DNA from: a virus
Strand: one strand, 5' to 3'
Virus genome (UHGV): UHGV-0272730
DNA: 64,000 bases
A program made the position numbers and the translations under genes. Positions 35,597-37,736 of this stretch are shown in pieces; position 1 is the first letter of the stretch, and each line of letters starts with the position of its first letter. The notes beneath the pieces are model-generated. The model was not told the origin of the DNA. It worked only from the letters and a program-made list of their open reading frames with translations, and did not search any database.

Positions 35597-35675
35597 TGGT
35601 ACTCCATATCGGATTCGAACCGATACATAACACAGATTTTAAGTCTGGCCTCTCTGCCAATTGGAGTAATGGAGC
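35597..35675 (-). tRNA. compact tRNA with anticodon UAA (Leu-decoding, no long variable arm)
   Basis: 79 nt; canonical T-arm ATCGG-TTCGAAT-CCGAT and CCA; anticodon loop CTTAAAA; weak D-stem. Confidence 0.45.
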
Positions 35676-35677
35676 AT

Positions 35678-35752
35678 TGGCGGGGGATGTTGGAATTGAA
35701 CCAACTTCTTCGATTTCAAAGACCGAGGTTTTAACCTTGTAAACTAATCCCC
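35678..35752 (-). tRNA. tRNA-Gln (UUG)
   Basis: Anticodon stem TCGGT/ATCGA with loop CTTTGAA; acceptor pairing imperfect. Confidence 0.5.
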
Positions 35753-35761
35753 TTTAAATCT

Positions 35762-36319
35762 TTACTTTCTCAGTGGATGAATAAAGAATGCCAACATAAC
35801 TCTTTCCCTTGAGAATGCTCTTTCTTCTGGGACAACACTTTTTAGTTTCCATCCAATATAAATTCTCCAGTAAAACTGTTTACCAAAGACTTTAATTGAT
35901 GGGATAAAGGCGAATAATCCCCAAGCATTACTGTTCCACATTAGGAGGTAACCAGTCTGATTATCTTCAGGGTCAGAACTTACGTTGATATTACCTTTCC
36001 ACTTAGTAACATCTTTTACATCTCTTCCTAATACATGGTAAGAGAAGTTATAAGCTTTGTTTCTCCAGAGCCATCCGACTCTTTGCATGTAGACGCCTAG
36101 TTTACCAATCCATCTAATATTAGCCCATCTTTTAACGTGACCTTCATCACCATCAATTGGGTTGTCATATGTCTCCATCCATCTGAACCCGAAAGGTAAG
36201 TGTCCTTTCTTCTCACTGTAGAATGGAACTACAAAAGGTGCTAAGATAACTGCTAAGATTGCTGCAAATGGCTCTAACAAAGCTAAGAAAATCCATGAAG
36301 CATACTTTAAGTATCTCAT
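35762..36319 (-). CDS. membrane protein (185 aa)
   Basis: N-terminal hydrophobic helices (WIFLALLEPFAAILAVILAPFVVPF); Trp-rich. Confidence 0.5.
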   Translation of the reverse strand: MRYLKYASWIFLALLEPFAAILAVILAPFVVPFYSEKKGHLPFGFRWMETYDNPIDGDEGHVKRWANIRWIGKLGVYMQRVGWLWRNKAYNFSYHVLGRDVKDVTKWKGNINVSSDPEDNQTGYLLMWNSNAWGLFAFIPSIKVFGKQFYWRIYIGWKLKSVVPEERAFSRERVMLAFFIHPLRK

Positions 36320-36558
36320 TGTCTAATCCTCGTAAGGAGGTAAATGTTATTATTCGTTTCTAAACCTTCTGGTAAAACTGTCTCAAAAATAACACTCTTC
36401 AGATGTCTACCACCAAAACAATCACGTATAAATCTTTCTACTCTAGCGGGGTCACATAAGTATCCCACTTTTAAGAAAATGTGGTGTTCAACACCAATGA
36501 CCCTGACAAACTCAATACTCTCACAGTTTTCATGTTCAACTACTGTTAATGTTTGCAT
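36316..36558 (-). CDS. hypothetical protein (80 aa)
   Basis: ORF overlapping the start of the downstream gene. Confidence 0.4.
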   Translation of the reverse strand: MQTLTVVEHENCESIEFVRVIGVEHHIFLKVGYLCDPARVERFIRDCFGGRHLKSVIFETVLPEGLETNNNIYLLTRIRQ

Positions 36559-36575
36559 AGTATCACCTTTTTATC

Positions 36576-36651
36576 TGGCGCAGGATAAGGGATTCGAACC
36601 CCTATTAACAGCTTCGTAGACTGTTGCTCTTTCCATTTGAACTAATCCTGC
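36576..36651 (-). tRNA. tRNA-Arg (ACG)
   Basis: Acceptor GCAGGAT/ATCCTGC; anticodon stem ACAGT/GCTGT with loop CTACGAA. Confidence 0.7.
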
Positions 36652-36656
36652 AAAAT

Positions 36657-36734
36657 TGGTGTTCCAAGACGGATTCGAACCGTCACTAATACAAGGTTTG
36701 AGCTTGCATCCTCTGCCAATTGGGATACTGGAAC
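36657..36734 (-). tRNA. compact tRNA with anticodon CAA (Leu-decoding, no long variable arm)
   Basis: 78 nt; T-arm GACGG-TTCGAAT-CCGTC; anticodon stem GCAAG/CTTGT with loop CTCAAAC; D-loop shares CCAATTGGCAGAG with the UAA tRNA. Confidence 0.5.
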
Positions 36735-36738
36735 ATGA

Positions 36739-36810
36739 TACTCACTAAAGGACTTGAACCTTTTTCTTCATCTTGTAAGGGTGATGTTTTACCATATAAA
36801 CTAAGCGAGT
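36739..36810 (-). tRNA. tRNA-Val (UAC)
   Basis: Acceptor ACTCGCT/AGTGAGT; D-stem GTTT/AAAC; anticodon loop CTTACAA; CCA not encoded. Confidence 0.5.
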
Positions 36811-36813
36811 ATG

Positions 36814-36903
36814 AAAGAGGTCTGGAGTTGTGCCGCTAACTCAACTCCGTGGAATTTGTTACGGTCTTCAGTTGACTCAAAGCGGTCTTTCACTTGACCT
36901 CTG
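36814..36903 (-). other. tRNA-like structured element (perfect 7 bp acceptor-like helix, no canonical T-loop)
   Basis: AGAGGTC ... GACCTCT terminal helix and internal GGAGTTG/CAACTCC stem; could not be folded as a canonical tRNA by eye. Confidence 0.25.
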
Positions 36904-36906
36904 AAT

Positions 36907-36983
36907 TGGTGCTCCCACAAGGACTCGAACCCGCATCTCCATCCTTACAAGGGATGTGTAATAGCCAATTATACGAAAGCAGC
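36907..36983 (-). other. tRNA-like element (anticodon arm compatible with Thr-UGU; acceptor/T-stem not resolved)
   Basis: T-loop GGGTTCGAGTCC and perfect anticodon stem CATCC/GGATG with loop CTTGTAA, but acceptor pairing fails by eye. Confidence 0.3.
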
Positions 36984-36984
36984 A

Positions 36985-37398
36985 TTAAACTTTTATGATA
37001 CCAGCATGTACTTTTCTGTGACAGTTAGCGCACAAGACAATGCACTTTCTGATTTCATCTTTTAATCTTTTTGTGGAGTATGAATAAAGTGATGCAGGAT
37101 TCAAATCTTTCTGGGAAGGGTCTGTATGGTGTAAATCCAATGCAACTGGTTCTTTCTCACCACATATATGACATTTGCATAAAGCTTTGTACCTTCTAGC
37201 TAGAGTCTTGTTATACTCTCTCTTGAAGTTACGAGTGCTTTTAATAGCCTCTTTCCTTTTATCATTTGCTTGATAACTCTTTGCATCACGAAGTCTTGCA
37301 CAGTCTTTGCATTGACTTTGAAGACCATCTTTCTTGTTCTTATTCTTATGGAATAAGCTTTCATCTTTTGGTATTCTGCAAGTACTGCATATTTTCAT
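36985..37398 (-). CDS. HNH endonuclease (inserted in tRNA array)
   Basis: N-terminal CxxC...CxxC plus HNH-type motif DLHHTDP...N...LCANCHRKVH. Confidence 0.75.
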   Translation of the reverse strand: MKICSTCRIPKDESLFHKNKNKKDGLQSQCKDCARLRDAKSYQANDKRKEAIKSTRNFKREYNKTLARRYKALCKCHICGEKEPVALDLHHTDPSQKDLNPASLYSYSTKRLKDEIRKCIVLCANCHRKVHAGIIKV

Positions 37399-37412
37399 AT
37401 CACACCTTAATT

Positions 37413-37487
37413 TGGAGCATCCAGAGGGAATCGAACCCTCAACCTCAGTTTGGAAGACTGTAATTTTCCCGTTTAAACTATGGATGC
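37413..37487 (-). tRNA. tRNA-Gly (UCC)
   Basis: Acceptor GCATCCA/TGGATGC; T-arm GAGGG-TTCGATT-CCCTC; anticodon loop CTTCCAA. Confidence 0.7.
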
Positions 37488-37493
37488 ACTAAT

Positions 37494-37569
37494 TGGTGGA
37501 GAAGCAGGGAATTGAACCCTGTACTTAAGTTTGCAAAACTTATGTTTTAACCATGTAAACTACATCCCC
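37494..37569 (-). tRNA. tRNA-Ala (UGC)
   Basis: Anticodon stem TAAGT/ACTTA with loop TTTGCAA; T-arm CAGGG-TTCAATT-CCCTG. Confidence 0.65.
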
Positions 37570-37575
37570 AATGTC

Positions 37576-37651
37576 TGGTACAGGTGGAGGGAATTGAACC
37601 CATCGTCTTACTGATTAAGAGTCAGCCGCATAACCATTTTGCTACACCTGC
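37576..37651 (-). tRNA. tRNA-Lys (CUU)
   Basis: Acceptor GCAGGTG/CACCTGT; anticodon loop CTCTTAA. Confidence 0.6.
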
Positions 37652-37658
37652 ATTAATT

Positions 37659-37736
37659 TGGTAGGAGACAAGGGATTCGAACCCTCAAACATCTCGTTCT
37701 AAGCGAGATAGGTTTACCAATTACCGTCAATCTCCC
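37659..37736 (-). tRNA. compact tRNA with anticodon UAG (Leu-decoding, no long variable arm)
   Basis: 78 nt; perfect 6 bp anticodon stem ATCTCG/CGAGAT with loop CTTAGAA; T-arm GAGGG-TTCGAAT-CCCTT; weak D-stem. Confidence 0.5.

Follow-up and report, generated by a model that had tools for sequence, protein, structure and literature searches.

Textbooks and reviews hold a long variable arm to be a defining feature of bacterial leucine tRNA (tRNA-Leu). Type I tRNA-Leu, in which this arm is missing, is already known from mitochondria and from Streptomyces; in the latter, the sole bacterial system studied, a variable loop of about 5 nucleotides (nt) was the minimum for efficient leucylation (PMC6614811). 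Arm-deleted tRNA-Leu of Escherichia coli remain substrates of leucyl-tRNA synthetase (LeuRS) if A73 and the tertiary contacts between D-loop and T-loop are kept (PMC9976931). Here, three tRNA genes with the leucine anticodons UAA, CAA and UAG were analysed in a stretch of 64,000 nucleotides of the virus genome UHGV-0272730, in the following called the window. Judged from their nucleotide sequences, the genes probably encode functional phage leucine tRNAs of the bacterial type, in which the long variable stem-loop is replaced by a connector of 5-7 nt. That such genes are tRNA-Leu is already known, and the mechanism is conventional; the frequency of the armless form in phages, its two core designs and the contrast with the tRNAs for serine and tyrosine are apparently undescribed. 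A large class of phage exceptions would correct the textbook statement, and it would account for the inconsistent labels (Leu, 'pseudo', 'Undet', 'OTHER') that annotation pipelines assign to these genes.

Structure and leucine identity of the three genes

All three genes are located on the minus strand and were called by ARAGORN as tRNA-Leu(UAA) (35597-35675, 79 nt), tRNA-Leu(CAA) (36657-36734, 78 nt) and tRNA-Leu(UAG) (37659-37736, 78 nt). The Rfam RF00005 scores were 47.5, 44.0 and 44.5 bits, respectively, at a gathering score of 29 bits. A first-pass annotation, made from the window sequence alone, had given exactly these coordinates, lengths and anticodons and left the strand unstated; its reservation that the folding by hand might be wrong was refuted by ARAGORN and Rfam. 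The canonical T-arms, the CCA ends and the variable regions of 5-7 nt that it had described were recovered both in the ARAGORN cloverleaves and in a positional parse. Each gene has a 7-bp acceptor stem, a UUCGAAU T-loop, A73 and an encoded CCA end. Type II tRNAs are defined by a variable arm of more than 10 nt with a stem-loop; the variable regions found here comprised 7, 6 and 5 nt.

In the Leu-UAA gene, the anticodon is located at 35639-35641, the variable region GUUAUGU at 35625-35631 and the D-arm, CUC-CAAUUGGCAGA-GAG, at 35650-35666; the gene contains a G1-U72 wobble and a C27-U43 mismatch. The Leu-CAA gene has its anticodon at 36698-36700, the variable region AUUAGU at 36685-36690 and the D-arm UCC-CAAUUGGCAGA-GGA at 36709-36725. 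As noted in the first-pass annotation, the string CCAAUUGGCAGAG in the D-loop is common to both genes, and both have a core with A9 and C13 (class A). The Leu-UAG gene, with the anticodon at 37699-37701 and the variable region UGUUU at 37687-37691, has a D-arm of 18 nt (37710-37727) that consists of the pairs A10-U25, G-C and G-C, one bulged C and the loop UAAUUGGUAAA. The extra nucleotide was assigned to the bulged C in the D-stem by Infernal alignments. This gene has a G1-U72 wobble as well, its core carries G9 and G13 (class B), and its nearest relatives were the Leu-UAG genes of T5-like phages.

The genes belong to a minus-strand array of 26 tRNA genes (34402-40187; ARAGORN). Long variable arms were present in tRNA-Ser(GCU) (34482-34574, 93 nt, 21-nt arm), tRNA-Ser(UGA) (37990-38079, 90 nt, 20-nt arm) and tRNA-Tyr(GUA) (39607-39694, 88 nt, 15-nt arm), all on the minus strand, which served as internal controls. 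No long-arm tRNA-Leu was found among the 26 tRNAs, in agreement with the first-pass annotation.

The long arm contributes to the recognition of tRNAs by bacterial tyrosyl-tRNA synthetase (TyrRS). It is the chief determinant for seryl-tRNA synthetase (SerRS) (PMC9976931). According to the portions consulted of PMC9976931 and the introduction of PMC6614811, E. coli LeuRS needs neither the long arm nor the anticodon, its determinants being A73, U8:A14, A15:U48 and features of the D- and T-loops. In the positional parse, all three Leu genes had A73, U8, A14, A15, G18G19, A20a and, at the end of the variable region, U48; the pairs U8:A14 and A15:U48 were judged from the nucleotides present, the tertiary contacts themselves being predicted. 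At the nucleotide level, all three genes thus carry the full arm-independent identity set of E. coli LeuRS. The G3:U70 pair of tRNA-Ala was absent, the 3:70 pairs being U-A in Leu-UAA and Leu-CAA and G-C in Leu-UAG. When leuZ, leuX and leuW of E. coli K-12 were parsed alike, they showed a 3-bp D-stem and an 11-nt D-loop gAAUyGGuAgA, and the D-loop of Leu-UAA and Leu-CAA, cAAUUGGcAgA, has the same register. The D-stems described as weak in the first-pass annotation are therefore indeed short, with 3 bp, and this geometry is a hallmark of tRNA-Leu and no defect.

Two covariance models were applied to the window. The first was built from 114 non-redundant armless Leu tRNAs of other phages with exclusion of the window sequences; its three best hits were the Leu genes with 70.6 (UAA), 69.5 (CAA) and 63.1 bits (UAG), followed by Arg-UCU with 59.0 bits. 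For the second model only long-arm Leu tRNAs were used (39 sequences, namely E. coli leuZ and genes of viruses). Although it penalises the missing arm, this model again ranked the Leu genes as the top three of the 26 array tRNAs, with 57.2 (UAA), 54.7 (CAA) and 51.6 bits (UAG), ahead of Glu (47.2 bits) and Cys (46.6 bits), while the arm-bearing Tyr and Ser genes reached 37.2 bits and 31.2 and 26.8 bits, respectively. In the alignments to this model, the arm stem alone was deleted and the remainder was colinear with tRNA-Leu.

Published isotype scores are available for Shigella phage Sf14, in which the Leu model of tRNAscan-SE 2.0 gave the top score for each of the three genes (67.4 for Leu_TAG, 49.1 for Leu_CAA and 60.2 for Leu_TAA), with the flag 'Consistent' throughout (PMC12482277). 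By blastn, the Leu-CAA gene of the window is 100% identical in Sf14, Felix O1, Moogle and other phages; the UAA gene of the Mooglevirus type differs from that of the window by 1 nt, and the UAG gene of this type differs in the anticodon stem. The human arm-less 'tRNA-Leu-CAA-5-1' is the opposite case, since it is derived from tRNA-Met and scores 98.4 bits with the Met and 2.6 bits with the Leu model (PMC8450103). The proposal of the first-pass annotation that the genes are type I Leu decoders is supported by the LeuRS identity set, the Leu-type D-arm, the ranking by the long-arm model and the scores for Sf14.

Some further features of the genes were recorded. The G1-U72 wobble at the top of the acceptor stem (positions 35675/35600 in Leu-UAA and 37736/37662 in Leu-UAG) was also present in 43 of the 114 armless Leu tRNAs and in E. 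coli leuZ. In the anticodon loop of Leu-CAA (CUCAAAC), C38 interrupts the motif A36-A37-A38, which according to a review is required for i6A37-dependent methylation by TrmL (PMC9976931); C38 recurred in armless CAA tRNAs from several unrelated phages. Leu-UAG has C32, A37 and A38 at the positions occupied by U32, G37 and U38 in host leuW, and owing to A37 the modification m1G37 is impossible there.

Conservation and distribution of armless tRNA-Leu

Matches to the three genes were obtained by blastn in 277 (UAA), 303 (CAA) and 346 (UAG) phage records, of which 253, 249 and 73, respectively, were at least 95% identical; the low last value is due to the occurrence of the UAG gene as two sequence variants. 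Between the window and its Mooglevirus orthologues (Sf13, Mordin), the UAG gene showed 8 differences, all of them in the anticodon stem, which reads UCUCG/CGAGA in the window and CCAUC/GUUGG in Mooglevirus with 4 of 5 pairs kept. In the comparison of Leu-CAA with its counterpart in Erwinia phage phiEa104, acceptor and T stems were rewritten yet paired, and the 17-nt D-arm was identical. Changes on both sides of the pair were found for all 20 cloverleaf pairs in the family of 114 armless sequences. A73, U8, A14, A15 and U48 did not vary in this family; U8, U48 and A73 were outside the search motif used for its collection. These patterns speak for selection on the genes.

Distant blastn matches to the three genes were annotated tRNA-Leu genes of similarly short length in unrelated phages. 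In a uniform ARAGORN pass over 12 phage arrays, Leu variable regions of 5-7 nt were found in 10 lineages. Armless Leu genes occurred in the window, Erwinia phiEa104, the T5-like coliphage KookSpook, Pseudomonas Otagovirus 16Q, Aeromonas Shenzhenvirus, Acinetobacter phage Rocket, Myxococcus Mx1 and Mycobacterium prophiGD54-2; Enterococcus Schiekvirus Bop (one armless, one long) and Rhodococcus Trina (one armless, two long) were mixed. The Leu genes of T4 and T5 were of the classical long-arm form. Every array encoding Ser or Tyr tRNAs kept their long arms (Ser 15-23 nt, Tyr 11-18 nt), with the exception of a doubtful 74-nt 'Ser(act)' call in the rnaX region of T5.

The IMG/VR database was scanned with an arm-length-neutral motif in which loop nucleotides were fixed (T-loop TTCGA, D-loop AAnTGGyAnA), and the matches were checked with ARAGORN; the resulting fractions are estimates for motif-matching tRNAs among the matches listed and not totals. 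At 80 loci, 46 armless and 85 long-arm Leu tRNAs were counted (35% armless). The armless share was 43% at loci with at least 5 tRNAs and 51% at loci with at least 10, these filters being a guard against host tRNAs that flank prophages. Short variable regions were found in 0 of 36 Ser and 1 of 16 Tyr tRNAs of the same loci. With 236 loci, the length of the Leu variable region was bimodal (172 tRNAs with at most 7 nt, 210 with at least 9 nt), and short forms amounted to 2 of 125 Ser and 2 of 55 Tyr tRNAs. Roughly 35-50% of the Leu tRNAs in the sampled contigs are armless, as against about 0-6% of those for Ser and Tyr. A73 and U48 were each present in 171 of the 172 armless viral Leu tRNAs. About 40 tRNAs other than Leu, Ser and Tyr had a variable region of at least 10 nt. 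Two such inverse oddities were called by ARAGORN in KookSpook, i.e. an 83-nt tRNA-Asn(GUU) with a 13-nt variable region (locus 6828-6910) and an 87-nt tRNA-Thr(UGU) with a 15-nt variable stem-loop (locus 11472-11558).

The core of the tRNA differed between the two forms. Long-arm viral Leu tRNAs had G9 in 158 of 160 cases and nearly always a purine at position 13 (C13 in 1 of 160). The combination of A9 and C13, a signature derived from this analysis and not a published criterion, was found in 64 of 160 viral armless and in 1 of 160 long-arm Leu tRNAs. Both armless classes are represented in the window array, with A9/C13 in the UAA and CAA genes and the G9/G13 core of the long-arm type in the UAG gene. 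For about 80% of the armless genes the nearest neighbour was another armless gene, and the sequences suggest that armless Leu tRNAs mostly form separate lineages. A recent deletion from a long-arm gene of the same genome was considered and rejected: armless and long-arm genes paired within one locus had an average core identity of 58%, which did not exceed that of other pairs. The long Leu-UAG of T5 and the armless Leu-UAG of KookSpook were likewise discarded as a deletion pair for insufficient similarity.

Among the matches listed in a scan of bacterial and archaeal genomes, armless Leu genes occurred mainly in Actinomycetota (Nocardia, Gordonia, Rhodococcus, Mycobacterium, Amycolatopsis, Corynebacterium and Bifidobacterium). 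They were chiefly solitary chromosomal genes (97 of the 120 loci listed had at most 3 tRNAs), and the A9/C13 core was present in 96 of 139 of them. The anticodons in Actinomycetota were UAA, CAA, UAG, CAG and GAG. A minority of the bacterial matches was located in arrays of at least 10 tRNA genes in metagenome-assembled genomes of other phyla. This distribution in Actinomycetota is much broader than the single published bacterial case, the tRNA-Leu(CAA) of Streptomyces coelicolor (PMC6614811). A blastn search with Leu-CAA against 5,426 E. coli genomes gave no match even at E<=10; the host is without a close homologue, and its long-arm genes are too divergent for detection by blastn at this length. 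The rarity implied in the first-pass annotation was thus not borne out, as the armless design is common in phages and Actinomycetota. Its premise of a type II structure for bacterial and T4 tRNA-Leu is valid in E. coli, T4 and T5 and is not universal in view of the armless tRNAs of Actinomycetota (PMC6614811).

Charging, decoding and alternative explanations

The array would be co-transcribed, as is presumed from the common strand and the gaps of 2-7 nt adjoining the Leu genes (ARAGORN coordinates), and host RNase P together with trimming at the 3' end would mature the transcripts, with CCA already encoded. Host LeuRS would charge the armless tRNAs with leucine; its acceptance of them is expected because every arm-independent determinant is in place. 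The UAA tRNA would then decode UUA and UUG, the CAA tRNA UUG, and the UAG tRNA CUA and CUG. Possibly the latter would also read CUU, given a modified U34 as in the host leuW tRNA, in which this nucleotide is presumably modified. Since LeuRS does not need the arm, it could have been lost, or an armless lineage could have been adopted; the arms of the Ser and Tyr genes of the array would be retained as a requirement of SerRS and bacterial TyrRS.

Codon usage was counted in 68 long open reading frames (ORFs) of the window. Leucine was encoded by TTA (29.6%), CTT (27.6%), CTG (13.6%), TTG (11.9%), CTA (10.8%) and CTC (6.5%), at a G+C content of the phage of 39%. In E. coli, CUG accounts for about half of the Leu codons. 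The mean relative synonymous codon usage of host and Sf14 is 1.06 vs 1.63 for TTA and 0.43 vs 0.69 for CTA (PMC12482277). Of the codons for which the first-pass annotation had proposed a comparison with the host, TTA and CTA are thus over-used by the phage, and TTG is not enriched.

Several observations weigh against the interpretation as functional armless leucine tRNAs. TTG is not over-used, neither in the window counts nor in the codon usage of Sf14 (PMC12482277), and codon supplementation is therefore no obvious explanation for the CAA gene. The margins of the three genes over other type I tRNAs of the array were modest in the covariance models (4-10 bits, and 4-5 bits for UAG), so that this ranking is supportive evidence for Leu membership, at the level of sequence, and short of overwhelming. 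The pairing percentage of the 114-sequence family (98.2% paired cells, compared with 59% after shuffling and no more than 46% for slid controls) is partly circular, as ARAGORN pre-selects cloverleaf folds. The UAG gene or its relatives are marked 'pseudo', 'Undet' or 'OTHER' in some records. Finally, the Streptomyces type I tRNA-Leu(CAA) was reported to go uncharged by E. coli LeuRS; it was stated that the enzyme 'only charges type II tRNALeu' and that a large variable loop is preferred by its leucine-specific domain (PMC6614811). We think that this failure would not transfer to the phage tRNAs, because the variable loop of the Streptomyces tRNA is ACAGC, hence C48 (PMC6614811), whereas U48 is found in the phage tRNAs, and A15:U48 is a pair on which E. 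coli LeuRS depends.

The labels in public records bear on the view that the genes are decayed pseudogenes, or tRNA-like elements that serve a purpose other than decoding, e.g. as signals for processing or as sites of recombination. Felix O1 and many relatives carry the annotation tRNA-Leu for these genes; elsewhere armless Leu genes appear as 'pseudo,tRNA-Leu(tag)', 'tRNA-Undet', 'tRNA-Pseudo-TAG' or 'tRNA-OTHER' (including MH571750 and phiEa104). Calls of another isotype or of pseudogenes by automated predictors, which the first-pass annotation had taken into account, do occur in some records, while other records and the Felix O1 paper give Leu. The records with such labels apply them to other clearly conserved phage tRNAs, too; the closest relative also marks its His, Gln and Glu genes 'pseudo', and we ascribe such labels to bacterial models that score phage tRNAs too low. 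When the sequences were folded singly with RNAfold, the D-arm was not recovered, and the free-energy z-scores were unremarkable with -1.4 to -1.8; these values are uninformative because tRNAs commonly give weak minimum free energy z-scores. The genes have Rfam scores of 44-47.5 bits, far over the threshold, with one mismatch in UAA and one bulge in UAG; their identity nucleotides are invariant, their stems show compensatory changes between genera, CCA is encoded, and they are conserved in hundreds of genomes. Decay or a non-decoding role is, on these grounds, very improbable.

Mischarging or recoding, in which another synthetase charges the armless tRNAs and UUA, UUG and CUA are partly read as another amino acid, had been offered by the first-pass annotation as well. 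The long arm of type II tRNAs can function as an anti-determinant, the human arm-less gene is Met-derived (PMC8450103), and the UAA and CAA genes share A35, A36 and A73 with tRNA-Phe. Against this, the Leu isotype model was the highest in Sf14 (PMC12482277), unlike in the human case, and the long-arm Leu model ranked the three genes first with only the arm deleted. The genes are without G34 and without G3:U70, their Leu-type D-arm is intact, and their anticodons are wrong for anticodon-reading synthetases. Phenylalanyl-tRNA synthetase needs G34. Moreover, the codons concerned make up 52% of the phage Leu positions in ordinary ORFs, and their reassignment would damage most proteins. This explanation is therefore extremely improbable.

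A different question is whether the tRNAs, while being leucine tRNAs, are armless as an adaptation, i.e. as an escape from nucleases, toxins or a phage-induced depletion that recognise the long arm. Leucine decoding would then continue while the host tRNA-Leu is under attack. Phage tRNAs that evade anticodon nucleases by sequence changes provide a precedent (PMC10264068). The enrichment of armless genes in large phage arrays and the missing match to Leu-CAA in E. coli genomes are in line with such an escape, as are the prevalence of armless nearest neighbours and the near-restriction of A9/C13 to the armless form; separate lineages with a distinct core suggest a maintained design and not repeated decay. 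To our knowledge, however, no nuclease or toxin recognises the variable arm of tRNA-Leu, and none was described in the phage-tRNA literature examined. T4 and T5 thrive with long-arm Leu tRNAs, a purely anti-defence role leaves the solitary chromosomal genes of many Actinomycetota unexplained, and the authors of the Sf14 study spoke against an escape of this tRNA set from nucleases (PMC12482277). We consider this adaptation unlikely.

A broader proposal can be made tentatively, and we regard it as rather doubtful: armless tRNA-Leu may be a distinct, selectively maintained architecture that was spread by phages across bacterial phyla and has an advantage beyond compactness. It would comprise two core designs: one with A9/C13, which is also that of Actinomycetota chromosomes, and one with G9 and either G or A at position 13, which resembles an arm-deleted long-arm tRNA. 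The architecture could insulate the tRNAs from factors, of the host or of the phage, by which the long arm of cellular tRNA-Leu is recognised. If the proposal is correct, natural type I tRNA-Leu is charged in vivo by enterobacterial LeuRS, in conflict with the published type II-only statement. Returning to the interpretation as functional armless leucine tRNAs, charging by E. coli LeuRS would require a revision of that statement, with U48 vs C48 as the obvious determinant. The phage arrays represent a natural experiment, as the arm is lost only in that type II family whose synthetase can spare it and is retained in Ser and Tyr; this pattern across hundreds of genomes supports, in vivo, the result of mutagenesis for E. 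coli LeuRS. Compact natural Leu scaffolds could also aid the engineering of suppressor and orthogonal tRNAs.

Array context and comparison with described systems

The best match of the 6-kb tRNA region was Escherichia phage vB_EcoM-Ro111lw with 97.7% identity, and Salmonella phage Felix O1 matched with 95.6%; the window is assigned to Felixounavirus (Ounavirinae, Felix O1-like). Three of the ARAGORN calls on the minus strand were below the Rfam gathering score, namely Thr-UGU (36907-36983), Tyr-GUA (39607-39694) and one Met-CAU (39858-39934); acceptor and T stems of Thr-UGU contain several mismatches. Small ORFs are located between the tRNA genes on the same strand (c. 35757-36320, 36340-36560 and 36985-37400). 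The annotation of these ORFs in relatives is either hypothetical protein or HNH endonuclease, and they represent the usual homing-endonuclease traffic of phage tRNA clusters. A promoter scan of the minus strand gave sigma-70-like sites just upstream of the first tRNA (40243-40214 and 40334-40306) and inside the array (38743-38715), and a terminator-like hairpin was detected just past the last tRNA (34239-34222, minus strand). The count of promoter-like sites was at chance, not above that in shuffled sequence, and the sites are weak context for the transcription of the array.

No description of armless phage tRNA-Leu was found in the open-access literature, in so far as its texts were accessible, which is no proof of absence. 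In the accessible parts of the Felix O1 genome paper, the Sf14 study, van den Berg 2023, Morgado & Vicente 2019, a review of tRNA diversity and the tRNAscan-SE 2.0 paper, no mention was encountered; the word 'variable' occurs 0 times in the Sf14 tRNA study (PMC12482277).

The tRNA-Leu genes of T4 (87 nt) and T5 (85 nt) resemble those of the window in their location in tRNA clusters, the geometry of the D-arm, A73, U48 and the anticodons UAA and UAG. They differ in that they keep a variable stem-loop of 13-15 nt, and the window genes, which are without it, are not simple deletion derivatives of them. Animal mitochondrial tRNA-Leu(UUR) is likewise type I and has its identity specified by A73 and A14 without a long arm (PMC9976931), but its scaffold is relaxed, it is served by a dedicated mitochondrial LeuRS, and its sequence is unrelated to the phage genes.

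The type I tRNA-Leu(CAA) of Streptomyces coelicolor shares with the phage genes a short variable loop, of 5 nt, and the lack of a long arm, and it occurs alongside a single LeuRS (PMC6614811). Its identity element U8:A14 (PMC6614811) has its counterpart in U8 and A14 of the phage genes, and the A9/C13 core of the UAA and CAA genes in the window is the one that prevails in armless Leu tRNAs of actinobacteria. The Streptomyces tRNA has C48, and A73 is not critical for its LeuRS (PMC6614811), whereas the phage tRNAs combine U48 and A73, the set of E. coli. Furthermore, only one of five Leu tRNAs in Streptomyces is armless, whereas all Leu tRNAs of the phage array are, with 5-7 nt and with Enterobacteriaceae as hosts. 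Arm-deleted and minimal tRNA-Leu of E. coli (Asahara 1993/1998; Tocchini-Valentini 2000; Larkin 2002, cited via PMC9976931) are laboratory constructs assayed in vitro or in vivo; the phage genes are conserved and, judged by sequence, resemble natural versions of these constructs.

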